Below the pieces are notes generated by a model. It saw only the letters and a list, made by a program, of their open reading frames with translations, was not told the origin of the DNA and made no database searches. The position numbers and the translations under genes were made by a program. Shown here in pieces: positions 1-26,089 of a DNA stretch of 26,089 nt; positions within the stretch are counted from its first letter, which is position 1, and each line of letters starts with the position of its first letter. Source of the DNA: a virus (Duplodnaviria; Caudoviricetes); IMG/VR virus record IMGVR_UViG_3300038393_003190, positions 1 through 26,089 of that record; one strand, written 5' to 3'.

Positions 1-357
1 TTATCCGGCCTGCTGAACACTACCGTGCTCCTTCAGTTCTTTTATCTCCATCTCAAAAGCGCGCATGCGGGCATGCAAAATATCCAGTTCAGTACGCATC
101 ATCTGTATTTCGGTAATCAGTTTTGGCGATTCGGCTTTGTTGATCTTCTTGTCGCCGGTTCCCAAAATGAGCCATTCAGGCGAATATTTAAGCTGAAAGC
201 ATAGTTTACTGATCAGATAATAACTCACCTCCTGCTTTTGATTGATCACCTTGCTGATAAAGCCCTGGTCGACACCAATAGCCCCGGCAAGCGCCAGCTG
301 GCCGCCATAATCTTTAACAATAATTTTTATGCGTTTTACAATACTATCGTCTACCAT
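1..357 (-). CDS. XRE/CI-like helix-turn-helix transcriptional regulator with C-terminal coiled coil
   Basis: HTH-like segment GQLALAGAIGVDQGFISKVINQK, followed by the SPEWLILGTG motif typical of CI N-terminal domains and a coiled-coil tail. The ATG at 357 (MVDDS) is preferred over the GTG at 381. Confidence 0.8.
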   Translation of the reverse strand: MVDDSIVKRIKIIVKDYGGQLALAGAIGVDQGFISKVINQKQEVSYYLISKLCFQLKYSPEWLILGTGDKKINKAESPKLITEIQMMRTELDILHARMRAFEMEIKELKEHGSVQQAG

Positions 358-444
358 ACGGTGCAAGTATAAGCAAACCACAATAAATGTAAAGCCTTAT
401 TTTTAAATGAAATATACATGGCTATTTTAAAGCCACTGCGGCCA

Positions 445-1137
445 TTAATGATTATGTTTTTTGTGGATGTCCTTAACCAGGCACAGCTTTTTAATATCAG
501 CTATTTTAATAGGGAAAGGCGCATATTTTAGCTGATGACCAATCATCTCGGTAGTATTGTCAGAGTGCGCAATCACCTCGCCTTCTTTATCGCTCAGCAA
601 TAAGCGCTTGTACATGCGGTAATCGCCCCATTCAATATAATAAACCTCGCCGGGTAATATTTTTTTGTCGTGGATAACCTTAAGCGCCACCCAGCAGCCG
701 TTCTCCAAATACGGATACATAGAATGCCCCCAAACCGGCAAAGCAAAGTCGCAATCTTCAATACCCGGAAAATTCATGCGCCCTACAGGCTGTGCATCAT
801 TAATATCGTTATAAACCTCAACACCCGAAGCTGTAGCCGTTATCTCGTACATAGGTATACCCTCGGCAACTTTTGAAACCTGTGTAGCAGGTACATGAGC
901 CACGCCGTCAATAAAATCTTTATAATGCGTTTTAAAAATTCTGAATTTTTCAGGATCGATGTTCTGGCGACTCTTGATGATCTCTGTAATGGAGCTTGCC
1001 GAATTAAAACCCAGCACCTCGGCCAGTTGCGCATTGCCTGTAAATGCCTTGCCTTTGAGCTGATTATATAAAATGATAAACTCCAGAGTTTCAGGACGAA
1101 TGTTCTTGATTTTATTGACTTTTTCGGGCGATTCCAT
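445..1137 (-). CDS. CI/LexA-like repressor: N-terminal HTH plus S24 autopeptidase domain
   Basis: HTH segment NAQLAEVLGFNSASSITEIIKSRQNI, S24 catalytic Ser motif VWGHSMYP, and Lys in MYKRL. The likely cleavage loop is YEITATASG. Confidence 0.88.
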   Translation of the reverse strand: MESPEKVNKIKNIRPETLEFIILYNQLKGKAFTGNAQLAEVLGFNSASSITEIIKSRQNIDPEKFRIFKTHYKDFIDGVAHVPATQVSKVAEGIPMYEITATASGVEVYNDINDAQPVGRMNFPGIEDCDFALPVWGHSMYPYLENGCWVALKVIHDKKILPGEVYYIEWGDYRMYKRLLLSDKEGEVIAHSDNTTEMIGHQLKYAPFPIKIADIKKLCLVKDIHKKHNH

Positions 1138-1167
1138 ATGCTGTTGAAAACTATTTTTAATTTTTTC

Positions 1168-1200
1168 TTGATTTTAAATACAGATATTTCTTTATATTTG
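1168..1200 (+). promoter_or_regulatory. Bacteroidota sigmaA-type promoter divergent from the repressor
   Basis: TATATTTG at 1193-1200 matches the TAnnTTTG -7 box, with TTG at 1168-1170 as a possible -33 element. Confidence 0.6.
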
Positions 1201-1375
1201 TATCGTTATCCGAAGCTAAACTAACACATATCTAAATACAATCCAAATAAAATTACAGAATATACAGAAAAATGAATACAGAACTACTGAAATACGATTT
1301 AAACTACAGGCAAGGCACCTACCCTTAGTTAAAGGAAACGACAAAAAACAATACCTGCCCATATGAAATACAGAA
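1179..1375 (+). repeat. Clustered TACAGA(A/T) motifs, candidate operator half-sites
   Basis: TACAGAT at 1179, and TACAGAA at 1254, 1263, 1277 and 1369, all in the divergent intergenic region. Confidence 0.4.
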
Positions 1376-1395
1376 TAGCCTAATACAACCAACCG

Positions 1396-1581
1396 ATGCA
1401 CATAGCCTACACCGCACTACAAGAAAGCAAACCGCGACCTACACACGGCAGCGTTACAGATGATAACCAATTACTCATCCGCTTAAAAGCTTATTACGCT
1501 GTTTGCGACAAGTACAGTAAAGAAATTACTGCCATACAAAAACACTTACCGGGATGGGTACCACCCTTTCCTGCCCTGTAA
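1396..1581 (+). CDS. Small hypothetical protein (61 aa)
   Basis: ORF downstream of the divergent promoter, followed by a GC hairpin. No recognisable domain. Confidence 0.55.
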   Translation: MHIAYTALQESKPRPTHGSVTDDNQLLIRLKAYYAVCDKYSKEITAIQKHLPGWVPPFPAL

Positions 1582-1612
1582 GGAAAAATTGAAAATACCT
1601 AAAAATTAATCC

Positions 1613-1642
1613 GGCCGCCAACAATGGCGGCCTAACCTTTTA
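1613..1642 (+). terminator. Putative intrinsic terminator or attenuator hairpin
   Basis: GGCCGCCA-ACAA-TGGCGGCC is a perfect 8-bp stem (1613-1632), followed by TAACCTTTTT. Confidence 0.5.
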
Positions 1643-1653
1643 TTGCATAAAAA

Positions 1654-2070
1654 ATGATAAAGATTACACAAAAACTAAAAGACAAACTATGGTGGATGAT
1701 CATTTCTGTTGATTATGATTACAGCCGCATTTCAGTAGCTGATCATGAGTTGAACGGCGAAATATTAACCCTTTGGCTGGAAGACAAGCACGATTTCAAA
1801 AACACACTCGACGAGTGCCTGCAGCTTGACATCAACACCAAACAATTTGCCAAGGTGATTAGGGCCGAAAATCTGAACAGCTATGAAGGCACCAAAATGC
1901 ACCCTAAAAAGCATTTTATTTATAAAACCCGTATTGAAATTAATGAACCGATAAGATGGTACCAGGAAGACGCGTCAGTAACCGAACAACGATGGGCGCG
2001 TGAGGCCGTAGTAAAAACCATCCTCACACAATTAGTGGAAACCGAGGTTGCCGAAGAAAAAATCTGGTAA
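1654..2070 (+). CDS. Hypothetical protein (138 aa)
   Basis: Clean ORF with an A-rich start context (ATAAAAAATG). No recognisable family. Confidence 0.75.
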   Translation: MIKITQKLKDKLWWMIISVDYDYSRISVADHELNGEILTLWLEDKHDFKNTLDECLQLDINTKQFAKVIRAENLNSYEGTKMHPKKHFIYKTRIEINEPIRWYQEDASVTEQRWAREAVVKTILTQLVETEVAEEKIW

Positions 2071-2073
2071 AAT

Positions 2074-2117
2074 ATTATGCCAAATAGCATATATGTCATA
2101 ATTTTTATTTATCTTTG
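2074..2117 (+). promoter_or_regulatory. Palindromic operator-like site TATGC-N6-GCATA next to a TAnnTTTG box (copy 1)
   Basis: ATTATGCCAAATAGCATAT at 2074-2092 is identical to 11133-11151. TATCTTTG lies at 2110-2117. Confidence 0.5.
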
Positions 2118-2151
2118 TATTGTCCGGCAATTAAAAGAGAAAATCTGTTGA

Positions 2152-2712
2152 TTACTTACGCAGCAGGTTGAAGGTGCCGCTCACCACATGCTCGCTCCCA
2201 TCATCGTCTTTTTTAGACATGAGGGTAGTAAATGTCCCCTTGGTTAACACGCTATCTTCCATGTATTTATTGAGGTGGATAGCATTTGATAGATTATTTC
2301 CAGCTTTATTTGAAAGCGCCAGTTGTTTAATGTGTTTTCCGTCGATATTAAACAACAGTTGGCCGCCGGCTATCACATTATCCAACTCAGGCCCGGCAAA
2401 GCCCGGCGAACTGATTCCAAAACTTACGGTATGTGCCTTATTAATAGCAGTTAAGCCAAAGTATTTATTACTGTCGATATTAACGTTGATGAAAGCTATC
2501 GAGTCTTTGGTGGCATCGAATGTGTAGGTCGAATCGTCGACCGTGATGCTGAGCGTGCCTTTTCTTGCAAAGAAATTGCCTGAGTTGTCGCTGGTATCCG
2601 GCTTAACCAATGGTTTAACTAAAGCTCCATCTGCAGGCTGCTCATCTTTCTGGCAGGATACAATCACTGCCGAAAAGAAAAAAGCGACTAACAGAGCTCT
2701 AAAAAACTTCAT
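2152..2712 (-). CDS. Putative surface lipoprotein (host-like)
   Basis: The ATG at 2712 gives MKFFRALLVAFFFSAVIVS-C-QKDEQ, a lipoprotein signal with K/D/E residues after the Cys, then a beta-rich body. A promoter-like TATCTTCG lies on the minus strand at 2737-2744. Confidence 0.75.
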   Translation of the reverse strand: MKFFRALLVAFFFSAVIVSCQKDEQPADGALVKPLVKPDTSDNSGNFFARKGTLSITVDDSTYTFDATKDSIAFINVNIDSNKYFGLTAINKAHTVSFGISSPGFAGPELDNVIAGGQLLFNIDGKHIKQLALSNKAGNNLSNAIHLNKYMEDSVLTKGTFTTLMSKKDDDGSEHVVSGTFNLLRK

Positions 2713-2879
2713 AAAAAGGCTTATTGTAAGTTTATACGAAGATAAGGGACAATTAGTTGTTTCTGAACAGCATTTAACAAATTTTAACGTTAAAACTGTG
2801 CCAATAGCAGTCAAAACTGCATTATTTAAAAAGTTTCACAGGGGCATGTCAATCACCCGCTTAAAACCCAACCTGAGTC

Positions 2880-3284
2880 ATGGCCAAAACAAAACATAAA
2901 TTCAACAACCGTGAGTCATTAAACAGACTCATTGACGAGTATTTTGAACGTTCAAAAAACAATACAGACAAAAATGTCGACCCGATTACCATTACAGGCC
3001 TTGCGCTTTATTTAGGCTTTGCCAGTAAAGAAGTATTTGATGAGTATGAGCAAATGGACAGATACAAAGATAGCTTGTCGCGCGGCCGTTTCAGGGTGAT
3101 GGCATACTATGAAAGCCGACTGCACTACCCTGCCCCCACCGGGGCCATGTTTGCCTTAAAAAGCATGGGTTGGGGCGACAAGGCGAAAGCCAAAAAAGCA
3201 GGTAACAAGACAAAATCGCTCACCGTGAAGGTGATCGAGACCGGTCCGCAGCCGGCATCTACCGAAAAAGAAGTAACGCTTTAA
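2880..3284 (+). CDS. terS: Terminase small subunit (P22 gp3-like DNA-packaging protein)
   Basis: PITITGLALYLGF..K..FDEY and GAMFALKSMGW motifs, and position immediately upstream of terL. Confidence 0.8.
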   Translation: MAKTKHKFNNRESLNRLIDEYFERSKNNTDKNVDPITITGLALYLGFASKEVFDEYEQMDRYKDSLSRGRFRVMAYYESRLHYPAPTGAMFALKSMGWGDKAKAKKAGNKTKSLTVKVIETGPQPASTEKEVTL

Positions 3285-3311
3285 AAATCGCCCAAAAACC
3301 AAACTAAAATT

Positions 3312-4538
3312 ATGATTGCTAATGATTATGAAGCGTCTGTATTGTTCAGGCGCAACTATTTCTCAAAGGCACATGTGGTCATTAACCAGGGCGGCACCAG
3401 CTCGGGTAAAACCTACGCCATTGAGCAGGTTTTATTTTGCCTGGCTGCAGAGAATGACAAACAAGTGATTACCGTTGTTGGCCAGGACATACCCAACCTT
3501 AAAGCCGGCGCCCTGCGCGATGCTTTGAGCCTTTACAACAGGTCTGACCAGCTGAAAAGCCTGATCAGAAATTTCAATAAGACCGACCGTATTTTTGAGT
3601 TTTACAATGATTCTATCATTGAGTTCAAGAGCTACGCCAATGCGCAGGACGCCAAGTCGGGCAAGCGCGATTATTTGTTTATCAATGAAGCCAATGGTAT
3701 TGAATGGAACATCTTCACCGAATTGGCGCTGCGAACACGGAATCGCATATTTATCGACTACAACCCCAATGCTGAATTTTGGGTTCATGACCAACTAATT
3801 GGCAAGCCCGGCGTAGAGCTGATTATATCCGACTATCGGCACAACCCATTCCTTGACCCGGCCATGGGCGATAAGATTGAAAGCATCAAAGAAACCGATA
3901 CCGAACTGTGGAAAGTTTACGCTCGTGGCCTTACCGGCCGTATAAGCGGACTAATTTTCACCAATTGGTTTGTAGTTGATGATATCCCTGCCGATGGCAA
4001 ACTCATTGGCGCGGGGCTGGACTTTGGTTTCAGTAATGACCAAACAGGCTGCTTGCAGGTTTACCTGCAAAATGGTGAGTTATGGATTGACGAGCTTTTT
4101 TATGATACCGAGTTAACCAATAAAGATATCTCCGCCAAATTATCCGCCAACGGGGTAAACAAAAATACGGAGATCATTGCTGACAGTGCCGAGCCTAAGT
4201 CCATCGAAGAATTGCGGAGAATGGGCTGGCTTGTATCGCCGGCGAAGAAGGGTGCCGACAGTGTCAATAACTCAATAGACATTTTAAAACGCTATAAACT
4301 AAACATCACGCGGCGTAGCATTAACCTGCGCAAGGAATTGGGGCGGTATAAATGGAAGGTCGATCGCTCAGGTAAACCATTGAATGAACCAGTCGACACC
4401 TGGAACCATTTGATTGATCCATTGCGGTATGTGGCGCTTAATAAATTGAAAACCAGATCGGCATCCCCACGCAAATCAAAACTACCCTACAAAGAAACCT
4501 TTACACCCGGCAACCTTACAGATTTATTTAAAACATGA
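3312..4538 (+). CDS. terL: Terminase large subunit, PBSX family
   Basis: Walker A QGGTSSGKT, Walker B YLFINEA, coupling motif DYNP, and nuclease motifs GLDFGFSND, ADSAEP and NHLIDPLRY. Confidence 0.95.
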   Translation: MIANDYEASVLFRRNYFSKAHVVINQGGTSSGKTYAIEQVLFCLAAENDKQVITVVGQDIPNLKAGALRDALSLYNRSDQLKSLIRNFNKTDRIFEFYNDSIIEFKSYANAQDAKSGKRDYLFINEANGIEWNIFTELALRTRNRIFIDYNPNAEFWVHDQLIGKPGVELIISDYRHNPFLDPAMGDKIESIKETDTELWKVYARGLTGRISGLIFTNWFVVDDIPADGKLIGAGLDFGFSNDQTGCLQVYLQNGELWIDELFYDTELTNKDISAKLSANGVNKNTEIIADSAEPKSIEELRRMGWLVSPAKKGADSVNNSIDILKRYKLNITRRSINLRKELGRYKWKVDRSGKPLNEPVDTWNHLIDPLRYVALNKLKTRSASPRKSKLPYKETFTPGNLTDLFKT

Positions 4539-5236
4539 TTGAAAAAACCGTAAAAACCTTAACAGGCAAGCTTAGCATTAAAATACCCTCGGCTTTAACC
4601 GAACTAAATCTGGGACAGCTGATGCAGATGCAGGCCATTGAACAATTAAGCGACCTGGATGCTATCAGCATACTATCAGGTATACCTGTGGCCGATTTAA
4701 AAAATGTAGTTCATTTTAATGAGTTTGATGTGTTTGGCGATGCGATATTATCGCTGTCCGGCCAAATCAAATATCTGTACAATGCCGAGGCTATTCCTGA
4801 TAAGATATCTTTTGATATCGACGGCAAAAAGGTGAACGTCAAAGTAAACCGCAACCTGTCCATTGAGCCGGCCGGCGCATTCATGGCTTCGCGCGATATT
4901 ATTGCCGAAGAGATCAGCAATCACATCAAACAACATGGCGAGGAAGATTGGCAGACAACTTTTAACCCATCTTTAAAAGCCTGTTGCCAGGTGCTAGCTC
5001 AGTACTGTTATTGTCGCGCTACCGGCAATCGGTACGACGAATACAAGGCCGAAGAATTTGCCGAAACCATTAAAACACTTGGGGTAACGGAGGCTCTGCC
5101 CATCGCCCGATATTTTTTTATGAGCTTTCTGGGCTTATCGAGACCGAAAACCGGCTTCTGGCGGCGCCTGCGACAGCCCTGGAGAAAAAAGCCGGAATAC
5201 AGGCTTTCGAAAAGTTTAAATATATCAATACCATAA
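4535..5236 (+). CDS. Probable tail assembly chaperone (gpG-like, zero-frame product)
   Basis: ATGA overlap with terL. It contains in-frame slippery heptamers T TTT TTT (5113-5119) and A AAA AAG (5185-5191) leading into an open -1 frame. Confidence 0.6.
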   Translation: MIEKTVKTLTGKLSIKIPSALTELNLGQLMQMQAIEQLSDLDAISILSGIPVADLKNVVHFNEFDVFGDAILSLSGQIKYLYNAEAIPDKISFDIDGKKVNVKVNRNLSIEPAGAFMASRDIIAEEISNHIKQHGEEDWQTTFNPSLKACCQVLAQYCYCRATGNRYDEYKAEEFAETIKTLGVTEALPIARYFFMSFLGLSRPKTGFWRRLRQPWRKKPEYRLSKSLNISIP

Positions 5237-5379
5237 ACTCATTAGCCGGCGGCGATATTACCAAATGGACCGAGGTATTAAATATGCCCTATGACAGGGT
5301 GCTTACCAAGCTCCTGCTCAACAAAACCGAAGCCGAGTATCAGCGCAAATATGCAGAGCTGCTGCAGGCCCAGCGATAG
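5113..5379 (+). CDS. -1 frameshift extension (gpGT-like C-terminal part), absent from the ORF track
   Basis: The -1 frame is open from 5074 to TAG at 5377-5379 and reads ...YELSGLIETENRLLAAPATALEKKAGIQAFEKFKYINTINSLAGGDITKWTEVLNMPYDRVLTKLLLNKTEAEYQRKYAELLQAQR. It has no ATG until 5284. Confidence 0.7.
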   Translation, partial: FFYELSGLIETENRLLAAPATALEKKAGIQAFEKFKYINTINSLAGGDITKWTEVLNMPYDRVLTKLLLNKTEAEYQRKYAELLQAQR

Positions 5380-5426
5380 TATAAAAATTACGGTTGTCTT
5401 TCGAACAATCATTAAACAACAAACCC

Positions 5427-5876
5427 ATGCCTATACGCAATCAAATAGAAGCCGTAGTTCAAACCATAACCGGCAGCCCCTCATTTATTTACGGCACTGC
5501 TAACGAGCTTAATTTATTAGCAGACGATGCCGTTTTTCCCTGTGTCTTCCTGTATCCTCCGCAAAGCATTAACCTGTCGCCGCAAATTAATGGTTCGGTG
5601 GATAATACTTTCAGTATCACGCTTGATTTTCTGTTTAAAACAGATTTCGACCAATATACTGCCGACAATGAAAGCTTTGTAAGCCAGGCGCTTTTTATGG
5701 CCAACCAGTTTATTGCTAAAGCTTCAACTTATCGCCAGGGGGATGGCCGCTACTTCAGGATAAAAGCTGGCGACAAGGCCAAATGTATACCGGTTTACAA
5801 CAAATTCGATGTCAATACAACGGGCGTTAGTTTAACTATTACGCTGGCGACAATGTATTTCAACGATTTACAGTAA
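5427..5876 (+). CDS. Putative tail completion/terminator-like protein
   Basis: About 149 aa from the ATG at 5427 (MPIRNQ). It has an FPCVFLYP motif and an alpha/beta pattern ending in TGVSLTITL, and its size and context fit tail terminators. Confidence 0.5.
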   Translation: MPIRNQIEAVVQTITGSPSFIYGTANELNLLADDAVFPCVFLYPPQSINLSPQINGSVDNTFSITLDFLFKTDFDQYTADNESFVSQALFMANQFIAKASTYRQGDGRYFRIKAGDKAKCIPVYNKFDVNTTGVSLTITLATMYFNDLQ

Positions 5877-5910
5877 TCCTTCTATTTCAAATCATTAATT
5901 AAAATTCAGT

Positions 5911-8001
5911 ATGGGATTAAATTGCTATATCAGGGCTCTTGAAAAAGAATACTCTACCGATGGCGCCTACAAGATAACCACCGCCAAAGTTTACGCGTTT
6001 ATAGTCGACGATTTTGACCAACCAACCGATGGCAACGGCGCTACCATTAATTACTTTATCAGCGAAAACCACGCCATTACAGGCACCGGCCAAGCCATTG
6101 CCATGGGGCAACAAGTTTTGTTGTTTGATGGTATTGTAGAGCGCGATCTGGATAACGGCGACGGCACATTTACGATTGAATACACCAAAACATTTGGGCT
6201 CGACAGCATCGTCCCGGCGCAAAGCCCGGCACCTCCGGTAAACAACTGCGACCTGTTGATCAACAGCATTAGTGTGGATAGCCCTGAGTCTGCACCCGGT
6301 GCAATGGATGGACAAATAAGTGTACACGCTTCGTCGAGTTATTTGCCGCTGCAGTACAGTTTGGATGGTGTTCACTTTCAATCGTCCAATATATTTACGG
6401 GATTGAGCGGCGGATTAAAAACCGTCACAGTTCAAGATGCCAACTCCATCGGTTGTGTTGAATCGCAGGCGGTTACCGTGCTGGTATTGAATGGCCTGCT
6501 CATCAAAGATCCGTCAGTCAACATCAACGGCAATATAAGCCGATGGAATGCCGCCTTCAACCCCATTGTGTTTACCTACCAACGCCGGGATTTTGGAGTA
6601 ATTAGTGTCGCCTACGATATAACGTACGGCAAGCCACGTGTAACCGTAAGCGCCAACCTAAGCGGATTGGCAACCGGCGATCAGATTTATATCAATGCCG
6701 GCTCTTATCAGGGTGTATTTAGCACGGTTGCTGTTTCACAGAATTCGTTCGTCATCGATACACCTTTTACAGATGGTATTTCAACTGGTTTTGTCAATAT
6801 CAACAAGCTAAGGCCGTATTACCGATTGCTCACCAACATTACTTACCAGGATGTCAAAACGGGTACAACACAAACCATCACCTCAACCAACCGGCCCGAT
6901 AACACGGGGCTAATCAGGGCAGACCTGTCCAACTTTTTGCAATCGTTATTGATTGCAAAAGATGACAGCGGCTACACCCAAGCCAATTTTAAAGACAGCA
7001 ACCTGAGCGCCTCTTATCAAATTAGCTATGCCGAACAATGGGATGACCCGAAGGCTACAACTGTTGATGCGCCGCCTATTACATCAAACACCATAAGCCT
7101 CACAGAACCCTATTATGTTGTTTATGCTGCCAAACAATTGGGCGAGCGTTATGGTGGTAATCTGGCGGCTTATGTGCCTTTTGCTAACGGGCAGCCGCTT
7201 GCAAAATGGGTCACTGATTTTGTTGAACCGGCTTATTCAAACGGGTATCCGTTCGATATCGGTTTTATTTATGGCGACAGCATCGTCGGCCAAAACATTT
7301 ATTGCGAACTGACCATGCTGGACATCAACAGAAATCCATTGTCCGGCACATCGCAAGATATCAGTTTATTGAATGAGGATGGCTCATGGTTACTTAACCA
7401 GGACGGCAGTAAGCTATTGATCGCCCGGCAAAATCCAACCGGTAGTACGCTGCCCCAGAAATTGGGTCTGAACAGGTTATTGGTTAACACCGATTTCCCT
7501 GCCGATGCGCACTATTTTAACATCACCCTAAAATATAATGACGGCATTGACACTCAATCTATCACCCAAACACAAACCGTGCGCATTGATGATGCGGTTG
7601 ATGAGCAATCAGTTTATTTACGCTGGATTGGGCTTTCGGGTTCGTGGAACTACTATCGCTTTGTTTATAATCAGGAGATTACACTGGATGTGCAAAATGC
7701 CACCATCATTAAAAATTATGTGACCGACTGGGAGAACCAGCAAGGGATTGAAGAGGTGATCAGCAAATCGGCGGGACAAAAAATGAAGGTAATGGCCGAA
7801 GATCTTGCCGTCGGCGATATCAAAGGGCTGCAATCCATCAAATACTCGCCTAAGGTGCAAATGTTGATGAGCAAAAGCCCTGTTAAATGGCAAACCGTAG
7901 TGCTCAATACCGCAACCTTTAGCGAGTACGAAACATTGAACGGCCGCGCTCCCTTCAGCGTGACATTTAACTTGCCGGGCATCAACATACAAACCCAATA
8001 A
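5911..8001 (+). CDS. Tail tip/baseplate structural protein with a SprB-like repeat
   Basis: Beta-rich 696 aa. C-terminal VYLRWIGLSGSWNYYRF...SPKVQML domain of the kind seen in Bacteroidota phage tail proteins, an internal SprB-like repeat, and an LLNEDGSWLLNQDG motif. Confidence 0.6.
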   Translation: MGLNCYIRALEKEYSTDGAYKITTAKVYAFIVDDFDQPTDGNGATINYFISENHAITGTGQAIAMGQQVLLFDGIVERDLDNGDGTFTIEYTKTFGLDSIVPAQSPAPPVNNCDLLINSISVDSPESAPGAMDGQISVHASSSYLPLQYSLDGVHFQSSNIFTGLSGGLKTVTVQDANSIGCVESQAVTVLVLNGLLIKDPSVNINGNISRWNAAFNPIVFTYQRRDFGVISVAYDITYGKPRVTVSANLSGLATGDQIYINAGSYQGVFSTVAVSQNSFVIDTPFTDGISTGFVNINKLRPYYRLLTNITYQDVKTGTTQTITSTNRPDNTGLIRADLSNFLQSLLIAKDDSGYTQANFKDSNLSASYQISYAEQWDDPKATTVDAPPITSNTISLTEPYYVVYAAKQLGERYGGNLAAYVPFANGQPLAKWVTDFVEPAYSNGYPFDIGFIYGDSIVGQNIYCELTMLDINRNPLSGTSQDISLLNEDGSWLLNQDGSKLLIARQNPTGSTLPQKLGLNRLLVNTDFPADAHYFNITLKYNDGIDTQSITQTQTVRIDDAVDEQSVYLRWIGLSGSWNYYRFVYNQEITLDVQNATIIKNYVTDWENQQGIEEVISKSAGQKMKVMAEDLAVGDIKGLQSIKYSPKVQMLMSKSPVKWQTVVLNTATFSEYETLNGRAPFSVTFNLPGINIQTQ

Positions 8002-8003
8002 TT

Positions 8004-8086: not shown

Positions 8087-8088
8087 TC

Positions 8089-18135: not shown

Positions 18136-18339
18136 ATGAATAAAAAGAAATATATACTTAAACCAGGCAAACACCAGTTTGCGCCGGGATCAGCCGCGGT
18201 GCATGATAATGATACACTGACAGATAAAGAAGCCGCGTGGTACCTGAAAAGATATCCGCATATCAAAACCTTATTTGAGCAATTGCCGGATCGCCAATCA
18301 TCCCCAATAAATCAAAACCAAAGCGAGGAGGGCAAATGA
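18136..18339 (+). CDS. Small hypothetical virion-associated protein (67 aa)
   Basis: ATGA-coupled to the portal gene. Confidence 0.7.
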   Translation: MNKKKYILKPGKHQFAPGSAAVHDNDTLTDKEAAWYLKRYPHIKTLFEQLPDRQSSPINQNQSEEGK

Positions 18340-19634
18340 AAACCTACTTACCACAAATAGAACGCAGAATATTAGTTCGTCCAAATCAAACTTTTGGCAT
18401 CCTTAACTATGATCTGGATAATGCCTATCCACAACGTATGCTGGAGTTGGTAGCTGGGTCGGCAACTGCAAAAGATTGCTGGAACAAACGTGCCAGATTT
18501 ATCGCCGGTAACGGGTTTGAAGACAAAGACCTGGGTACGCAAGTGATCAATCCTAAAGGACTGACCATTGCCAAGCTATTAAAAGCTATTGCTACTGACA
18601 AGGCCTTATTTACCGGCTTTGGTATCCATGTAAATTATAATGCCAACTACCAGATATCGTCGGTAAACTATGTAAAGTTTGAAGACATACGCATGGGTGA
18701 CACAGACAGCCCGGATACCGCCGACAAATTTGCTTTATATAATGATTGGGGGCGTAAAACCTGGAAGAACATCATGCGCAACAAGATTATCTTCCTGGAC
18801 AAATATAATCCCGATCCGGAGGCCATTCAACGGCAGGTAGATACAGCGGGCGGATGGGAAAAATACAAGGGGCAGCTCTATTATTTCAACCCTGAAATTG
18901 ATGATTATCCGTTAATAGAAGCCGATAGCGTTTGGGAGGATTTCGAAACCGAAGCCGGCATCAAGATTTTCAATAATCGGGAGGTCACTACCGGTTTCTT
19001 ACCGTCGACAATGCTGTTCATGCAGTCACGTCGTGAGGAGGCAGATAACAGTCGCCCTGACGATGGTGAGCAAACATTTATCAATCAGCCATCGCAACTG
19101 GAAAAAGACCTGGGCCAGTTTCAGGGAACCAAAAGCGCACAGAAGATCATTGTGATCGAATACGAAGACGAGAGTCAGAAACCTGAATTTAAGCCCTATA
19201 CTATTCAAAATAACGATAAACTTTTTGAGACAACCGAGCGATCTGTCGAAGCCCGTATTATAAAAGGCTTTTCGGTTCCGAAGGAATTGATCAATGCAGA
19301 AAAGTCATCAGGCTTAAGTAATGGCAGCGAGAAAAAGGAAGCTATCCGCGAGTTTAATGATAACACCGCCGCGGATCGCTCGGAAATAGCTGATGTATTT
19401 GCTGAAATCTTTGACAAGTTTTATGTCGATGTCAATCCCTCCGGAAACTGGAACATCATCCCCATTCCTACTACCGTAGCAGACGATACCGCGGGCATGG
19501 TGGCCGGGCGAAGCATTAATCAACTGTTACTATCCGATCTGTCATCGGCAAATAAAATAGCTATTCTGGTTTACGCTTATGGCTTCAAGCGGCAAGAAGC
19601 AGAAGAAATGGTATCGGCTGAAACTTTAAACTAA
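18336..19634 (+). CDS. Portal protein
   Basis: 432 aa. Motifs YDLDNAYPQ, FIAGNG, NREVTTGFLPSTML, QFQGTKSAQKIIV and IIKGFSVPKELI...SGLSNG match the portal architecture. Confidence 0.8.
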   Translation: MKTYLPQIERRILVRPNQTFGILNYDLDNAYPQRMLELVAGSATAKDCWNKRARFIAGNGFEDKDLGTQVINPKGLTIAKLLKAIATDKALFTGFGIHVNYNANYQISSVNYVKFEDIRMGDTDSPDTADKFALYNDWGRKTWKNIMRNKIIFLDKYNPDPEAIQRQVDTAGGWEKYKGQLYYFNPEIDDYPLIEADSVWEDFETEAGIKIFNNREVTTGFLPSTMLFMQSRREEADNSRPDDGEQTFINQPSQLEKDLGQFQGTKSAQKIIVIEYEDESQKPEFKPYTIQNNDKLFETTERSVEARIIKGFSVPKELINAEKSSGLSNGSEKKEAIREFNDNTAADRSEIADVFAEIFDKFYVDVNPSGNWNIIPIPTTVADDTAGMVAGRSINQLLLSDLSSANKIAILVYAYGFKRQEAEEMVSAETLN

Positions 19635-19639
19635 ACATT

Positions 19640-20257
19640 ATGAATCCAATTTTAATTGATCAAACTACTTTTCAGCGATACGAGGACATTTCTGTAAATA
19701 TTAAGCCCGGGCGCCTAAAAGCATTCGTCAACAAAGCGCAGGATCTTGATTTGAAACCCTTTTTGGGATATGCTTTATATTACGATTTCATCAAACATTT
19801 TAACGATAATGGAACGATTAAAGACGACGCTCCGCAATCCTATAAAGATCTATTGAATGGCAGCGAATATCTGGATCAGCATGGCTATATCGTGCTTTAC
19901 GAAGGTCTGCTTCCTACTCTGCTTTATTTCGCTTTCGCACGATTTATAGAAGCGGATGCGATACGTTATACATCAAGCGGACCGGTCATCAAATCACTCG
20001 ATAGCAGCATACACGCGGCACCACAATATATTACAAAACTGGTACAACAGCAGCGTAGCGTAGCCAATGCACACGCTAATGAAGTCGAAAAGTTTCTGTG
20101 GGATCATCGGGCAGATTTTCCGCTATGGCGATTTAGTAATAAGAATAAAAATGCCCGGCAACCAGGTCCGCGTATTCGCAGCGTTGACAAAACCAACTTT
20201 AACTACCCAGGCGGCAGTTATAATCAAACCAATTATTTACCGCTAATAGAAATATAA
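19640..20257 (+). CDS. Head-tail adaptor-like protein (DUF6712-like)
   Basis: Follows the portal gene. Pattern AQDLDLKPFLGYALY...GLLPTLLYFAFARF...TSSG. Confidence 0.6.
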   Translation: MNPILIDQTTFQRYEDISVNIKPGRLKAFVNKAQDLDLKPFLGYALYYDFIKHFNDNGTIKDDAPQSYKDLLNGSEYLDQHGYIVLYEGLLPTLLYFAFARFIEADAIRYTSSGPVIKSLDSSIHAAPQYITKLVQQQRSVANAHANEVEKFLWDHRADFPLWRFSNKNKNARQPGPRIRSVDKTNFNYPGGSYNQTNYLPLIEI

Positions 20258-23200
20258 TGTCAGACAAAAAAATAAGCGAATTAACCGAAGCAACAGTCAT
20301 CAATCAGACTGATGTTTCGGTACTGGTAAGTGGTGACACGGATTATAGATTCGCCTTTTCGACGCTACTACAGTTTTTAGGAAATAATCTGAACGTTGGG
20401 GCAAATATTTCATTCGGCACCGTGCTGCCTCAAAATACGTCAGGTAAAAACGGCGATCTGTTTATCAATACAACCACCGGCTCATTTGCTCAAAAAATAT
20501 CCGGCACATGGTCGGTGGTTTATAGTCTGCCTTCAAACAACACCCAAACGGATACTACAGTGCTATATGGTTTTGGAGTACCTGGAGCATTGACCGGTAA
20601 CAATGGCGATACCTATATCCATACCGGAACCGGCGTTTTTTACAAAAAATCGGCCGGTAGCTGGAGCCAGGTATTCTCTATGCAAACCGGGCCTCAGGGG
20701 CCCCAAGGGCCTGCCGGCACAAATGGCACCAACGGAACAAATGGTTTTAGTGTTTTAAATGGACCGGGTAATCCGTCAAATTTAACAACCGGTACTAATG
20801 GTGACTTTTATATTAACACCAGCAATTACAATTTTTTCGGTCCTAAAACTGACGGTGACTGGGGCGACGGTGTTTCATTAATACCACCAGGCATTTCACC
20901 TGGCGGCACTGTCGGGCAAGCCTTGATTAAAAATAGTGACGCTGATTACGATATAGAATGGTTCGATTTCGACACGCTATATGTAAAACTTGGAGGAAGT
21001 TACAGTAATCCATCATGGATAAACTCATTAACTTGGGATAAAATAACCGGCGCGCCTACTACTATCAGCGGATACGGCATTACGGATTACAATGGCCTGG
21101 GTGACGCCCGCTGGCTGCAGCAATCAGGCGGTACGGTAACCGGCGATATCCAATCTACTTTTTCAGCATTTAGCTCAACATCCTTTATAACCAAAAATTA
21201 CGTCGACAATATTATTACCGGTGTTATTTGGGTGGGCGCGGATGCCGCGACAACTACAAACATACCGCTGTCGGGCGAACAAACCGTAGACGGTGTGACC
21301 ACCTCGTCATCACGCGTCTTTGTTAAAAATCAAACCGACCAAACGCAAAACGGCATTTATATCACAAGTACCGGTGCGTGGATGCGAGCTACCGATGCCG
21401 ACACAGGTACTAAGATAACGCGACTGGCTATAATTATCGAGGGTGGTAGTCAAAAGGGCAATCAATGGGTGAATACCAATAGCTCGATTACTGTAGGTAT
21501 AACCAATATAACGTTTGCTCAAAGTTCTGGGTTAGGTACTTATACCAATGGTTTGGGTATTGCGTTAGCGGCAAATGTGTTTAGTTTGGATTTGGCTTAT
21601 GTTGATGCGAGGTACCAGCCCCTGGAAAATCAAAGGTTGAGTACTACCAATAGTCCGACTTTTGCCAAAGTCGTTGCAGACACCCGAGGCGTTGGTGCAG
21701 GTTATAACTCAACCGCAAACCATGTCTTAATTGCTAATAGTACCGATAATACATCGACTAACGTTTATCCGGTGCTGGTAAACAGATCGCAAACCACTTT
21801 GACTACAGGCTACGGTACAGGCATTCTTTTTGCAGATCAAACAGTAGCTTTGGGTAAGATATTATTGGTTAGGCATAATTCAGCTGACAATTGGGATTCA
21901 GAGATGCGATTTTATGTAAGGATGCGTAACGGTGGCTATACAACCGATCCGGAAGTTAACCAAGTATTAGCGCTAACATTGAATAATGATGCTTCGGCAA
22001 CTTTTGGCGGCGCTATAATCGGCGCGGGTAAAATATCAACGACTTTAACCACCGAGCAGTTTAGATTGAACTACGATGCCACGCATTATGTTTCGCATAC
22101 TGTTGACGCAATAGGTAACTATACGATTGCAAATAGCCCGGCGGGGAATATAATAATAAATGCTCCCAATAGTGCATATGGACTTACTATTCAATCTACT
22201 GCATCAAGCACTAATGTTTATCAACTTTTACCAAGCATCCCTGGCAGAGGGGCCGGCTTTGCTTTAAGAGATAATACTATAGGCGCTAACTTGTTTTATG
22301 TTGATAAGGGTGGTACTACATTTAGTATTCCCGGAGTAATGGGTGTAGGAGGTAGTATAGAAGCATCCAGTTATATAGCAAGTTATAGCTCCTTTACGAT
22401 GCCATCGGGAGCTTATTTAGATTTCGACAAGGGTGTTTCAAGTAATTATAGGATATATAAAAATGGTATCGTTTTACAATTTAATAGTGCCGGAGGGTTT
22501 TCTTTTAATGGAATAATTAGTTCAGGTGGGTTTGGGTCGATTAGCAATGCATCAGCAGCAGCATGGGGTGTGCTAAGTCCGTCGTTTTATACAGCTTCTA
22601 AAACAATGACTGATACTTCAACTCCAGCAAATACTACAGTCAGCAATGTAACAGCTGTTTCAGGGGGTTTTATGTCCGCAACTTTAGCAGCCACGAATAC
22701 TAGTGTTACGTACACTACAGCTGCAACTATAGTGGTTAACGGACCTCCAACAGCAGGAACTAATGTTACTATTACTAATCCTTATTCTCTTTATGTTACT
22801 AGTGGTGTTGTAGCATTGGCTGGCACAACCGGTACATCATTGAAGTTGGGAGCAGCTACTAGCTTATCAACTGCAACACCAGTAGCTATTGACATGGGAG
22901 GAACTATCAGTAATACTGCTGGAGCTAATCCAAAAATATTGCTATTTAATGATGGAACAAAAAAATTAGGGTTTGGGTTTTCAAATGCTCAGTTTGATTA
23001 TATGGCTGATACTAATAACCATCATGCTTTTTGGTCGGGTACTACAAAAGTGTTCGATATTGATGGTAACGGTTCATTAACCATGAACTCGATAAGTTCG
23101 GCGTCATCAAATATTACATTTAATAATTTAAATAATTCAGGGGCTTCACTTAGTTATAATTATTCTGGCTTAAACAGATTTCAATTTAATACACCGTCCG

Positions 23201-23859
23201 GGATTGTACCTGTTCTAAGCATTGGCAGCTCATCTACAATGGCCAATGGCGCTTTTTTTGAATTTTTCGGATTGGGATCGGCGGCCAGTTCAAACAATGA
23301 ATCGCTGCGATTTATATTGAATAATGCTTTTTCGGTTAGTGGTACGCAGGATGCAGTAATTAACACTTCTGCAAATGGAACCGGTACAGCAAGGAACATT
23401 CAGATTAACCCGAATGGAACACCTGGCTTCGGAGTAACAACTGCAGGTAAGGTAGGCTCGCTATCATCAGTTTCCCCTATTACATTTAGAAATGTGCTTG
23501 ATGATGGCTCCGGTAATGCCACCTTTGCTGGTTTAGTGTACTCTACATCCGCAACGCCAACTATTTCAGTTACCGGCGCGGGTACAGGTGCTACCATAAA
23601 TATTAGTGGCAGCAATCAAAAGCAAATCATACAAATAACGACGGGAACGTCTCCAAGCAATATGGCAATAACCGTAACAATGTCCGGAGGTTTTGCTTAT
23701 CCACATAGTTGTGTACCTGTTGTCAGTGCTCTTTCATCGTCGGCGCAAACATTGGGCTGGTATGTTTCTTCTTTGGGCGCCAATACTTATAGTATGTATA
23801 CTGGGGCAACAACCGCATCAACCGTTTATTATTATACAGTAGATAACGGAGGATATTAA
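20257..23859 (+). CDS. Long mosaic fibre / receptor-binding protein (1200 aa)
   Basis: MSDKKISEL start, three GxNGDxxIxT...W repeats, collagen-like GPQGPQGPAGTNGTNGTNG, WDKITGAPTTISGYGITD, and an ATTTNIPLSGEQTVDGV...KNQT..QNGIY module, then a G/S/T/N-rich C-terminus. TAATG coupling to the upstream gene. Confidence 0.85.
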   Translation: MSDKKISELTEATVINQTDVSVLVSGDTDYRFAFSTLLQFLGNNLNVGANISFGTVLPQNTSGKNGDLFINTTTGSFAQKISGTWSVVYSLPSNNTQTDTTVLYGFGVPGALTGNNGDTYIHTGTGVFYKKSAGSWSQVFSMQTGPQGPQGPAGTNGTNGTNGFSVLNGPGNPSNLTTGTNGDFYINTSNYNFFGPKTDGDWGDGVSLIPPGISPGGTVGQALIKNSDADYDIEWFDFDTLYVKLGGSYSNPSWINSLTWDKITGAPTTISGYGITDYNGLGDARWLQQSGGTVTGDIQSTFSAFSSTSFITKNYVDNIITGVIWVGADAATTTNIPLSGEQTVDGVTTSSSRVFVKNQTDQTQNGIYITSTGAWMRATDADTGTKITRLAIIIEGGSQKGNQWVNTNSSITVGITNITFAQSSGLGTYTNGLGIALAANVFSLDLAYVDARYQPLENQRLSTTNSPTFAKVVADTRGVGAGYNSTANHVLIANSTDNTSTNVYPVLVNRSQTTLTTGYGTGILFADQTVALGKILLVRHNSADNWDSEMRFYVRMRNGGYTTDPEVNQVLALTLNNDASATFGGAIIGAGKISTTLTTEQFRLNYDATHYVSHTVDAIGNYTIANSPAGNIIINAPNSAYGLTIQSTASSTNVYQLLPSIPGRGAGFALRDNTIGANLFYVDKGGTTFSIPGVMGVGGSIEASSYIASYSSFTMPSGAYLDFDKGVSSNYRIYKNGIVLQFNSAGGFSFNGIISSGGFGSISNASAAAWGVLSPSFYTASKTMTDTSTPANTTVSNVTAVSGGFMSATLAATNTSVTYTTAATIVVNGPPTAGTNVTITNPYSLYVTSGVVALAGTTGTSLKLGAATSLSTATPVAIDMGGTISNTAGANPKILLFNDGTKKLGFGFSNAQFDYMADTNNHHAFWSGTTKVFDIDGNGSLTMNSISSASSNITFNNLNNSGASLSYNYSGLNRFQFNTPSGIVPVLSIGSSSTMANGAFFEFFGLGSAASSNNESLRFILNNAFSVSGTQDAVINTSANGTGTARNIQINPNGTPGFGVTTAGKVGSLSSVSPITFRNVLDDGSGNATFAGLVYSTSATPTISVTGAGTGATINISGSNQKQIIQITTGTSPSNMAITVTMSGGFAYPHSCVPVVSALSSSAQTLGWYVSSLGANTYSMYTGATTASTVYYYTVDNGGY

Positions 23860-23882
23860 CTAAAATACCATAAATAAAACAA

Positions 23883-24305
23883 ATGAAAACAACTATTAAA
23901 AGTATCGATCAATTCAACCAATTAGCTACTTATTATTTGCAAAAAAACACAGCCGACACTAAGTTGAATTACGCACTTAAAAAAGTGCAAAAACAGTGTG
24001 AGCCCGTACTGGGGGCTTATAACAGCGACTTACAGGACATTGCCATCAACAATGCGTCTGTAGATGAAAAAGGCAATTTGGTGCACGTTAAAAACGAGGT
24101 CAGCGGTGCGATCATTGATTATAAATATACCAAGGAAGCCGCAATTAAGCGTAAAAACGAATCTAAGGACTTGTACAATGTGGAGAAAGACTATCCTATC
24201 ACACCTCATATACTCCGAGATCTGCCTGCTGATTTGGCTGAAGAGCAAATCGAAATATTCGCCGGATTTGTGATGGAACCAATCATTGATATTGAGCCGG
24301 TATAA
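23883..24305 (+). CDS. Hypothetical protein, possible fibre assembly chaperone
   Basis: Helical 140-aa protein directly after the fibre gene, with the LNYALKK...VDEKGN pattern seen in phage post-fibre genes. Confidence 0.55.
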   Translation: MKTTIKSIDQFNQLATYYLQKNTADTKLNYALKKVQKQCEPVLGAYNSDLQDIAINNASVDEKGNLVHVKNEVSGAIIDYKYTKEAAIKRKNESKDLYNVEKDYPITPHILRDLPADLAEEQIEIFAGFVMEPIIDIEPV

Positions 24306-24323
24306 TAAAACAATCCGACGCTC

Positions 24324-24698
24324 ATGACTATAGGATCTTCTAACCTTATGATAATCATATCAATCCTTACTTCGGTAGGGTTTGGTATGACTATTACTGT
24401 AATTGCAACCCGGCGGAAAATCAAAGCAGAAACTTTACTTGCTGAAACTCGGGCAAAATTTACTGAGATTGAGATGTATAGCAAAATACTTAACGACCTA
24501 AAAATGCAATCAGAGATACAAGCACAACAAATATTAACGCTGCAACAAAAGGAAGCCGAGTATCTAAAAATCATCCGCGCGCAAAATTCGCGGGAACGTG
24601 AATTGAACAAGAAAATTAATCATATGGGTATTGAAATCACCTTATTAAAAAACAAATTGACAATTTATGAACAAGCTGAAAAACTGGCTGATAAATAG
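24324..24698 (+). CDS. Single-TM coiled-coil protein, holin/antiholin-like
   Basis: N-terminal hydrophobic helix followed by RRKIKAE and a coiled coil. First gene of the lysis cassette. Confidence 0.55.
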   Translation: MTIGSSNLMIIISILTSVGFGMTITVIATRRKIKAETLLAETRAKFTEIEMYSKILNDLKMQSEIQAQQILTLQQKEAEYLKIIRAQNSRERELNKKINHMGIEITLLKNKLTIYEQAEKLADK

Positions 24699-25077
24699 CT
24701 GGAACCTTCTAACTGAAATATCATTGCATCATGGCGAATACATTTTATTGACAGCCGCCATTCTTCTTTTCCTTGTGTCTCCTTTTCTTTTAAGGTGTTA
24801 CGATCCAACTGCCGGAACTTTCGATGTCGGCGTTTTGCAAGTAAATATTACCTCTATAATTAGTCTGTCTATTTTTTGCTCAGTGTCCTGGTTAATGATT
24901 AAGGTGATATGGCCTGATCTGCGCTATTTCTTTGAAACCGAATTTGGCACCGCTTTTAAATCCCTAACATCATGGCAAAAAGTAACTACGTCTTTATTTA
25001 TCTACTGCTTTATTGTGTTGGTGTTAGTTATGCTCAATCAAGCTATACCAGCAATACAATCATCCGCAATAAAGTAG
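24667..25077 (+). CDS. Putative holin (3 predicted TM segments)
   Basis: Three hydrophobic stretches, and it overlaps the endolysin gene. Confidence 0.55.
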   Translation: MNKLKNWLINSWNLLTEISLHHGEYILLTAAILLFLVSPFLLRCYDPTAGTFDVGVLQVNITSIISLSIFCSVSWLMIKVIWPDLRYFFETEFGTAFKSLTSWQKVTTSLFIYCFIVLVLVMLNQAIPAIQSSAIK

Positions 25078-25517
25078 CATTAACTTATACTTCGCAAATT
25101 GGTGTTCGAGAATTAACGGGCAACAATGACGGCAAAGCCGTTGAAACTTACCTTCGCTACTGCGATTTGCCTAAAGGAGAACCCTGGTGCGCTTCATTTG
25201 TCTGTTGGGTTTACGGGAAAAATAATGTTACAAATCCCAGAAGTGGCTTTTGTCCGGATCTATTTCAACAAAAAAACATTGTCTGGACACGAAATTCAAA
25301 TCACAACATCACCCCTACCCGAGCCGACATCTTCGGAATTTATTTCCCCGACAAAAAAAGAATTGCTCACACCGGTTTTATAGATAAGTGGACCTCAACA
25401 CAGGCACACACTGTCGAAGGTAACACTAACCAAGCCGGTAGCCGGGAAGGTGATGGTGTGTATCGCAAAATACGATTAACCAGGCAGATCTATGCCGTAG
25501 CAAGATTTATAAAATGA
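24972..25517 (+). CDS. Endolysin, CHAP/NlpC-P60-like amidase/peptidase with an N-terminal signal-like segment
   Basis: PWCASFV (catalytic Cys), IAHTGF (His) and TVEGNT motifs, with a hydrophobic N-terminus YVFIYLLLYCVGVSYA. Confidence 0.85.
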   Translation: MAKSNYVFIYLLLYCVGVSYAQSSYTSNTIIRNKVALTYTSQIGVRELTGNNDGKAVETYLRYCDLPKGEPWCASFVCWVYGKNNVTNPRSGFCPDLFQQKNIVWTRNSNHNITPTRADIFGIYFPDKKRIAHTGFIDKWTSTQAHTVEGNTNQAGSREGDGVYRKIRLTRQIYAVARFIK

Positions 25518-26089
25518 AATTTTATTTAATTACAATACTTTGTATTATCCTTACTTCATGCTCAAAAAAAACACATGTTTCAGATACCATCCAAACATCA
25601 ACTAAGTTGCAGGAAAATAATGATAGTATCGGAATAAGAAATTTATTAAGTGTTGACAAATCGGTCATCACAACTAATATTGATCTAGATACTACCATTT
25701 CAATAAGCGGTAAACCGTTATTGGGTAGCTTTAATCTTAAAGATTCTATCGGAAGCTTTGAGAACGATGATTTAATAATTGGCTTTACGAAAGATAAATC
25801 CGGTCTAAGCATCGGCTTTAAGGCATCGCCTAAAGTAAAAACCGTCAAGGCGCATTATCATCAAAAAAGCCTAACACAAAACAACATTTTCAAAACTGAT
25901 AACTCTCAATTAAATACACTCAAGAAAACAACTATTCAACATGATTCAACCAGTAATCATGTTGCAGACCACCGTGACTCAACGAATATTATGAGCGGCC
26001 TAAAATCTATTATTGTTTGGGTTATTATTTTGCTAATCGCCGCTGTGGTCGGATTTTTTATCCTGAAGAGAAAATTATTACAGTTTTAA
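25514..26089 (+). CDS. Putative unimolecular spanin
   Basis: Lipoprotein signal (ILTS-C), beta-rich middle and C-terminal TM helix (IIVWVIILLIAAVVGFFIL-KRK). ATGA-coupled to the endolysin. Confidence 0.65.
   Translation: MKFYLITILCIILTSCSKKTHVSDTIQTSTKLQENNDSIGIRNLLSVDKSVITTNIDLDTTISISGKPLLGSFNLKDSIGSFENDDLIIGFTKDKSGLSIGFKASPKVKTVKAHYHQKSLTQNNIFKTDNSQLNTLKKTTIQHDSTSNHVADHRDSTNIMSGLKSIIVWVIILLIAAVVGFFILKRKLLQF

Follow-up and report, generated by a model that had tools for sequence, protein, structure and literature searches.

The closest described systems to the locus analyzed here are the gene transfer agents (GTAs), of which those characterized stem from few lineages, and PBSX of Bacillus subtilis, a fixed defective prophage whose tail is contractile and whose single locus is under the control of a CI-like repressor. 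PBSX packages 13.4-kb chromosomal fragments, yet acts as a tailocin (PMC12946183, in excerpt). RcGTA and the Rhodogtaviriformidae, BhGTA (PMC9662315, in excerpt) and FpGTA of Faecalibacterium (PMC12946183, in excerpt) have in common chromosomal head and tail genes of caudovirus descent, a single-copy terL, vertical inheritance, purifying selection, no replication module and presence in most species of the host taxon. The criteria of the virus-taxonomy committee ICTV for a viriform GTA are, in the portion of PMC9662315 drawn on here, six: particle genes, endogenization, vertical inheritance, packaging of random host DNA, a head below the size of its own gene set, and delivery. We report here on a locus of the genus Mucilaginibacter, represented by the 26,089-base virus record IMGVR_UViG_3300038393_003190, which was analyzed whole and is hereafter termed the window. 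The locus is a host-inherited phage gene set, without genes for integrase or replication, that selection keeps at a tRNA site. With the known GTAs it shares the traits given above for RcGTA, BhGTA and FpGTA, and three of the six ICTV criteria can be recognized at the sequence level: caudovirus-like particle genes, endogenization without replication or excision, and mostly vertical inheritance. The element is GTA- or PBSX-like in its working and cannot be filed as either; it is probably a host-kept particle system of one of these two kinds, and our tentative preference, at somewhat below an even chance, is a GTA-like role, in which host chromosomal DNA is packaged into tailed particles unable to replicate and is carried by them to related cells. 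No description of the element and no characterized Bacteroidota GTA surfaced in the literature searched, most subscription papers lying outside its scope, and the excerpted passages of PMC12074574 report geNomad proviruses only. The window and its close relatives are filed as viruses, and the locus likely inflates soil-virus catalogues.

The window holds a 26-kb, siphovirus-like cluster of head, tail, packaging and lysis genes. From left to right, these are a helix-turn-helix (HTH) gene and an S24 repressor (both on the minus strand), two small open reading frames (ORFs), a lipoprotein, terS, terL, the tail chaperone, three putative neck and tip genes, a variable cassette, the tape measure, a ClpP-type protease, the capsid, a putative tube, the portal, DUF6712, the fibre and the lysis module. 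An earlier, sequence-only reading of this DNA had proposed that all the modules needed for a tailed particle are present with intact ORFs, and the particle modules are indeed open; terS, terL, portal, protease, endolysin and repressor are backed by library profiles, while the tube, tip, adaptor, holin and spanin labels derive from position, source names or hydrophobicity. The region between repressor and terS (1138-2879) likewise holds two small ORFs and a lipoprotein, as had been claimed, and the scan of 28 window ORFs against Pfam and PHROG returned no integrase, helicase, primase or recombinase. No tail-sheath family was matched by the window ORFs, several of which are without assignment, in Pfam, PHROG or NCBIfam, and the tail is therefore probably non-contractile. 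Rfam and ARAGORN searches of the window found nothing. Since the record is the whole window and starts and stops on gene ends, its own flanks are not inspectable and the flanking context was taken from relatives.

TerL is matched in 197 of 229 Mucilaginibacter genomes, the ORF at 1654-2070 in 199 and the capsid gene in 117 (two of them weak), nearly always as a single copy; the genome set comprises many metagenome-assembled genomes (MAGs) and one unpublished genome (G135), and the tallies carry no completeness figures. The capsid query returned 107 GTDB relatives, the best 80 of which are syntenic, 78-97% identical and titled Mucilaginibacter or unclassified Bacteroidota/Sphingobacteriales, and among 401 family genomes portals of more than 70% identity are confined to the genus, other homologues lying at 21-39%. 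The right end of the element abuts tRNA-Leu(GAG) and tRNA-Leu(CAG), beyond which lie a YCF48-like gene and tRNA-Lys. The tRNA-Leu pair is present in 13 of 20 loci scanned, with four further loci showing tRNA-Lys alone, the YCF48-like neighbor appears in 27 of 41 right-flank rows, and in one locus (L326) tRNA-Leu(GAG) ends nine bases beyond the homologue of the window's last lysis gene. Conservation across the genus at one locus, which had been named as a check on domestication, is thus borne out by a genus-wide presence, nearly always as a single copy, and by a fixed right end, the left neighbors being clade-specific. Likewise, the flanks of relatives that were examined contain neither an att duplicate nor an integrase tied to the element: 29 left-side sequences show no repeat of the tRNA end of 16 nt or longer, and in five genomes an integrase sits beyond the YCF48-like gene, apart from the element. 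We infer that the element may have arisen by integration at tRNA-Leu, followed by loss of the integrase and of the second att site.

The inheritance of the element was assessed with a tree of its protease, capsid, tube, portal and DUF6712 genes (FastTree supports), set against the single host marker rpoB in 46 genomes. The two trees share 26 of 43 splits (patristic r 0.77), far above the mean of 0.17 and maximum of three shared splits in 1000 label shuffles, as expected from the proposed domestication. Median pairwise ratios of nonsynonymous to synonymous substitution (dN/dS; Nei-Gojobori, pairs with dS 0.05-1.5, pairs non-independent) span about 0.03-0.23 over the element genes and, also in line with that proposal, head and packaging genes lie near the rpoB value of 0.032: capsid 0.053 (150 pairs), portal 0.038 (20), tube 0.048 (64) and TerL 0.065 (17), with higher medians for the protease (0.10, 218 pairs), TerS (0.19, 20) and the chaperone (0.21, 296), and 0.099 for a flanking host gene. 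Selection on the genes of defective prophages is known, and an old prophage relic in the course of being lost might owe its low dN/dS to its phage past, the deletions described below being its decay; some frameshifts and stops are in fact present (capsid in G033 and G077, protease in L131 and L381). Sister species, however, differ by dS of 0.2 to more than 1 and dN of only 0.003-0.07 on branches that match the host tree, from which it follows that selection acted during residence. Intact copies also occur across the whole rpoB tree with deletions at its tips, and an internal stop is seen in one of 150 TerL matches among the matches listed. The tree and dN/dS results largely refute the relic, which we regard as quite improbable.

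Outside the genus, Bacteroides phage BS-TP3 (PQ571276) and prophages in two genomes (G425 and G266) share with the element the order Clp protease, capsid, tube-like gene, small gene, portal, adaptor, fibre and lysis genes, with portals 32-38% identical to its own. All three keep an integrase after the lysis genes, whereas the element has none. Besides the integrase, the two prophages carry AAA_24, SNF2 helicase, methylase and ParB or Lin1244-type genes, with a recombination and replication block upstream of terL, and these relatives are sporadic and lie at other sites; they show the ancestral genes now missing from the element. An active temperate prophage is not matched by a locus without integrase, att pair, replication genes or sporadic distribution. 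Tailocins, as far as is known, have lost capsid, portal and terminase, which in the element are present and constrained. With PBSX it shares a fixed, defective complement of head, tail and lysis genes, a CI-like repressor and a terminase that may be of the PBSX class (80.7 bits against TIGR01547, the PBSX family, below the cut-off of 105.05), and differs from it by the lack of a detected sheath gene and by its phylum. From the known GTAs it differs in its independent phage origin (a Bacteroidota siphovirus lineage with a Clp-type protease and the portal after the capsid), in its arrangement as a single locus that includes a CI-like repressor and the lysis genes, in its swapped fibres with surface-modifying genes and in its recurrent exact deletions.

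Under the GTA-like reading, the S24 repressor would occupy a conserved operator until it is put out of action by stress, perhaps DNA damage; the rightward genes, with the candidate activator at 1654-2070, would then switch on terS to spanin, a terminase of the headful class would cut the chromosome and fill heads, the holin-endolysin-spanin module would lyse the producer cell, and the swapped fibre tips would determine recipient range. As there is neither excision nor replication, and nothing else available to package, the chromosome would be the sole source of packaged DNA. Retention of head, portal and terminase favors this reading over a tailocin. These genes, constrained at rpoB level, also bear on the rather unlikely alternative that the same host-kept particles are mainly a PBSX-like weapon against competing strains, with host DNA in the head incidental: F-pyocins, which are non-contractile killers, are not known to keep head, portal or terminase genes, PBSX itself is contractile while no sheath was matched here, and no toxin family appeared among 22 accessory families scanned. 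The weapon nonetheless gains from the swapping of fibre tips between species, from an acyltransferase family (PF01757) found in 27 capsid loci, where for the most part it separates the fibre from the lysis genes, and from the glycosyl- and methyltransferases of other loci, as expected for self-protection by surface change. It gains further from variable lipoprotein cassettes upstream of the tape measure, the position of exclusion genes (HK97 gp15 is an exclusion gene located before the tape measure), from the single locus under a CI-like repressor, from the double nature of PBSX mentioned above, and from non-producer deletions frequent enough to fit a costly public good. Taken as a set, the variable fibre, surface and lipoprotein parts favor an ongoing interaction with cell surfaces and fit recipient choice as well as killing with self-protection.

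The sequence-only reading had further taken host-type palindromes as a sign of long residence without ORF decay. The palindrome at 14622-14707 proved to be a genome-wide repeat in related genomes. The absence of decay was wrong: at least 61 of the 229 genus genomes have clean internal deletions, and in only about 99 are the TerL and capsid genes both whole. The window itself is partly decayed, with a decayed gene copy and an orphan tape-measure 5' fragment at about 10830-11508. What stands of the proposed domestication is the genus-wide, near-single-copy distribution, rpoB congruence, low dN/dS and right end fixed at tRNA-Leu, with neither an att duplicate nor a linked integrase in the examined flanks of relatives; the decay-free claim falls.

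These deletions were characterized in 70 genomes fetched for looking broken, 30 with a short TerL match and 40 with a full TerL and no whole capsid. In the former set 29 show a joint and one stops at a contig edge; in the latter, 32 have an internal loss, seven end at a contig edge and one (G038) carries divergent phage genes. Non-producer alleles arise repeatedly as clean deletions at few fixed positions, about 49 of some 62 joints falling at eight sites and about 13 being singletons. The left breaks lie at terL codon 101 (window 3614/3615; 21 genomes, exact and in independent lineages), chaperone codon ~191 (window ~5105; 10 genomes), codons 38 (seven genomes), 77 (three) and ~146 (one genome and one IMG/VR contig) of ORF 5394, codon ~577 of ORF 5911 (three) and terL codons 146 and 158 (two each). 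The right ends include capsid codon 87 (window ~16383; six genomes and three JGI contigs), the end of the tape measure (window ~14103; five joints) and several sites within the holin. The joint of terL codon 101 to the capsid is base-identical in six of six genomes despite synonymous differences on both sides. On the rpoB tree its carriers stand dispersed between intact relatives, and a single old deletion or allele transfer was rejected, approximately unbiased (AU) tests of carrier monophyly giving p 9e-61 on rpoB (five carriers) and 3e-54 on the capsid remnant (eight carriers). Since dN/dS in the remnant genes is about the same as in intact genes, TerS and holin being higher, the deletions look recent.

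Nucleotide-exact recurrence without a common motif is hard to explain biologically and might suggest a database or assembly artefact. This we find hardly credible, given that the same joint occurs in three JGI metagenome contigs, that an IMG/VR contig near-identical to the window (L147) is broken at another hotspot, and that joints checked contain no N and are found also in records where one contig is the whole genome. Several biological routes were likewise rejected. One-base microhomology at terL codon 101 fails, as the first base of codon 102 in intact genes is A in 22 of 37 sequences and G in five, and the capsid joints there all show G, as in the right parent. Deletions of headful length were rejected on inspection, the right ends holding the same codons though spacing varies by kilobases from genome to genome. 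An excision circle is not supported, the reciprocal capsid-to-terL pattern having one IMG/VR match, without homology to the element; a search for the terL-to-tape-measure joint pattern gave no matches. No shared DNA motif was evident in the consensus contexts of about 17 breakpoint sites, although by eye the right ends often read CA/R and several left ends WSN/ (the slash marking the break). Contig mapping of four runs, using contigs alone, gave no joints at the hotspots; in one run (X2), coverage at depth 25 spans positions 1-14703 and all but ceases thereafter, a gap that is not counted as evidence.

The SPP1 terminase subunits by themselves cut at pac, within the small-subunit gene (PMC3592435, in excerpt), which by analogy suggests the element's terminase as the maker of the breaks. 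Ku is present in five of five genomes tested, and cutting by the terminase with rejoining by Ku/LigD is our leading guess, doubtful as it is; a recombinase or topoisomerase could equally be the breaker. A broader and fairly unlikely proposal is an independently evolved Bacteroidota GTA that leaves scars in its own locus, fixed positions being broken, despite synonymous change, by the terminase or a further conserved enzyme and then bluntly rejoined. By the same speculative scheme, to which we give no greater weight, producers would turn into non-producers, at least a quarter of the species representatives being fresh knockouts, and particle DNA may restore an intact copy. In one genome (G091; L079/L399) an inversion is seen between the 696-aa tip gene and the capsid gene, both joints of which fit a reciprocal exchange with no base gained or lost, the parents being deduced from relatives. 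Repeated nucleotide-exact deletions point to an unrecognized process of DNA breakage and joining, and they are a measurable formation of cheaters in a host-domesticated phage that bears on why GTAs persist. Mucilaginibacter, a genus of soil and roots, can be cultured and includes many type strains, and naturally matched producer and non-producer sister species exist, which makes the system directly testable.

The strongest break, about 300 nt into terL, lies near the position of the SPP1 pac (gene 1; PMC3592435, in excerpt) and, with the pac class of the terminase, speaks for a grounded, self-serving prophage that packages itself in situ from a pac site in the style of lateral transduction, the head holding the whole 26-35-kb locus and flanks, and homologous recombination or a helper phage restoring the locus or spreading it among kin. 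Such a prophage would account for the survival of intact copies next to many fresh deletions, and module exchange with phages does continue; tree congruence and the fixed tRNA-Leu end nevertheless leave little scope for interspecies spread, neither an att duplicate nor, in nearly all genomes, a second-site copy was seen, and we judge it unlikely.

Several observations weigh against the GTA-like reading that we prefer. Besides the deletions and the limited share of genomes with both genes whole, 32 of the 229 genomes have no TerL match, seven of 34 well-supported element splits disagree with rpoB, left-flank neighbors are common within clades and not genus-wide, and one locus (L095) has neither the tRNA-Leu pair nor tRNA-Lys within 20 kb. 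Exchange with phages continues, as attested by swapped fibre, surface-modifying and lysis modules and by the divergent structural genes of G038, and with genomes of relatives reaching 57 kb the entire locus might fit into the head. One copy of CTAA-N5-TTAG, the Sphingobacteriaceae SOS box, is present, which is the chance level, and no genome-wide operator regulon was found, eight remote sites fetched having no common target. The sequencing runs located are whole metagenomes, and the single RNA run (X24) yielded scattered contigs at low depth that belong to a relative (90-97% identity) and from which transcription cannot be deduced; particles, packaged host DNA, induction and gene transfer are predictions.

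The regulatory left end opens with a small HTH regulator (1-381, minus strand; phrog_8/phrog_4 regulator matches) that adjoins the repressor in many, not all, relatives. The CI/LexA-type repressor (445-1137, minus strand) has an S24 peptidase domain (PF00717), 75-94% identity to GTDB relatives and a median dN/dS of 0.026 (five pairs); its Ser and Lys motifs read GHSM and YKRL, with ATASG as a doubtful candidate for the cleavage bond. A conserved palindrome in the aligned consensus, TAMAGA-N4-TCTKTA (1179-1194), is the operator candidate. It overlaps a promoter-like TAnnTTTG box, lies upstream of the repressor in 19 of 20 left-flank loci (L328-L347) and matches once in the window (chance mean 0.25). 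DNA-damage-inducible, phage-like S24 repressors have been documented in Bacteroidetes (PMC8565304, in excerpt), and given these, induction of the Mucilaginibacter element by DNA damage is plausible. The likeness lies in a chromosomal phage-like S24 repressor with a palindromic operator in its own promoter; the element differs in its operator motif and in showing no conserved second target among the remote sites fetched. Rightward follow a 61-aa ORF in the cro position (1396-1581, plus strand), with a start region conserved in relatives and no family match, and a conserved 138-aa protein (1654-2070, plus strand), the candidate activator, which has no Pfam, PHROG or Atlas match and 43 matches among 1.84 billion representatives. 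The lipoprotein (2152-2814, minus strand) lies directly upstream of terS in most left flanks. In relatives, host genes are interleaved between repressor and terS; in one clade the repressor pair is inverted, and in one clade a RES-Xre toxin-antitoxin pair is inserted directly upstream of terS (L088, 4911-5934).

The genes that follow, up to the variable cassette and again beyond it, lie on the plus strand. The small terminase subunit (2880-3284) is P22 gp3-like (PF16677, GP3_package; phrog_606) and, at about 36-78% identity across the genus, is the fastest-changing packaging gene. The large subunit (3312-4538) is of the SPP1/PBSX/P22 class (Pfam Terminase_3/3C, Terminase_3 over its cut-off), its Walker and nuclease catalytic motifs being kept in 40-46 of 47 sequences. 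The ClpP-type prohead protease/scaffold (14846-16012) exceeds the NF045542 cut-off and matches phrog_94. The putative major capsid protein (16126-17334), with a beta domain inserted at about aa 174-268, has no Pfam match; its label derives from an ESM Atlas feature search leading to capsid clusters (SU10_MCP 0.95) and from a gene position that corresponds to capsid gp3 of BS-TP3. The 99.9% profile match to that protein is weak, leaning on four prophage rows added by gene position, to one of which the window capsid has a direct BLAST E of 0.11. Structural models reached a predicted local distance difference test (pLDDT) score of 31 from the single sequence and 42 with 25 rows, confident solely for aa 174-268; Foldseek gave no match at E<=0.001 and the PDB sequence search was empty. 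The related phage genome measures 57.5 kb against the 26-kb window, and the capsid model is too poor for head sizing. The portal (18336-19634) matches phrog_11226 (E 7.6e-78), and DUF6712 (19640-20257; PF20459), a putative head-tail adaptor, follows the portal in the prophage relatives.

The tail-assembly chaperone G (4535-5236) is predicted to extend by a programmed -1 frameshift at a T-tract (~5112-5118) into an 87-aa extension, giving GT (4535-5379), an arrangement that is classic for tail chaperones; the -1 frame stays open for 83-87 codons after the tract in 33 of 33 distinct sequences among the matches listed, which gives the chaperone label good support. Synonymous positions directly upstream of the tract are conserved (GTAACGGAGGC motif; window 5085-5379), which suggests a frameshift stimulator, and the second-commonest deletion hotspot falls in the same few chaperone codons as this motif. 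A putative tail terminator or neck protein (5394-5876) is conserved in prophage relatives, as is the order of the two large putative tail-tip genes of 696 and 704 aa (5911-10131; phrog_26672, a virion protein, and phrog_33698), whose dN/dS is 0.059 (one pair) and 0.044 (11 pairs). The variable cassette (10203-11830; low GC, repeats D3/D7) comprises a membrane protein (10203-10811), its decayed copy, the orphan tape-measure fragment (11167-11508) and a small ORF (11582-11830). Tandem lipoprotein or membrane genes alternate with tape-measure fragments in arrays that vary between genomes (window, L006, L027, L052, L137, L385), resembling an exchangeable cassette system. The tape-measure protein (11806-14148; phrog_14476) has 780 aa, against mostly 650-1000 aa in relatives, and in two genomes (L400, L401) its block lies between terL and chaperone and not after the tip genes. 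In the repeat analysis, an (ACTC)n tract with related host-type repeats (14180-14292) and a similar CACT-rich tract (8045-8087) stand out; they recruit other contigs of the same metagenomes and are probably a host repeat family. Beyond a conserved 96-aa ORF (14300-14590; dN/dS 0.09), found in most capsid loci, comes the REP-like host palindrome (14622-14707), which has 24-nt perfect arms, high depth in metagenome contigs and 12-39 copies per genome in three of three related genomes, reversed-pattern controls giving none. The putative tail tube (17458-18042) is named 'Tail tube protein' in UniRef, its BS-TP3 homologue being annotated as a head-tail adaptor, and the label is unsettled.

The 1200-aa tail fibre and its 140-aa companion (20257-24305; phrog_11518) are conserved in the first 210-280 aa of the fibre alone, coverage in relatives being mostly 17-23% and the distal modules swapped. 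The lysis module (24324-26089), delimited by profile scans and hydrophobicity, comprises two holin-like membrane proteins, a CHAP endolysin with a library profile (24972-25517) and a spanin-like lipoprotein with a C-terminal membrane helix. This CHAP type is in the minority, the usual module being lysozyme-holin, and at least four endolysin families occur across the loci, the others including PF00959, PF01832 and PF05838.

A few genomes depart from the general pattern. Two MAG records (L063, L048) contain second, more divergent cluster copies with the tape measure before the 704-aa gene, which may be contamination or related prophages. G038 (L144, L317, L151) combines an element-like repressor, a homologue of ORF 1654 and a 69%-identical TerL with structural genes 26-37% identical and some 8 kb of extra ORFs, and may be a sister element that has undergone less reduction, or else the outcome of replacement by a phage. 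Other, more distant clusters of this phage family are found in two genomes without the main element, G064 (L319-L320) and G073 (L311-L312), with no integrase among the G073 ORFs scanned (the G064 ORFs were outside that scan); these are possibly separate domestications. Finally, in L326 the integrase beyond the YCF48-like gene, a tyrosine integrase, stands at the head of a separate island past tRNA-Lys (5777-11318) that also carries an AAA_13 protein and Shedu (SduA_C), and tRNA-Lys looks like a separate insertion hotspot.

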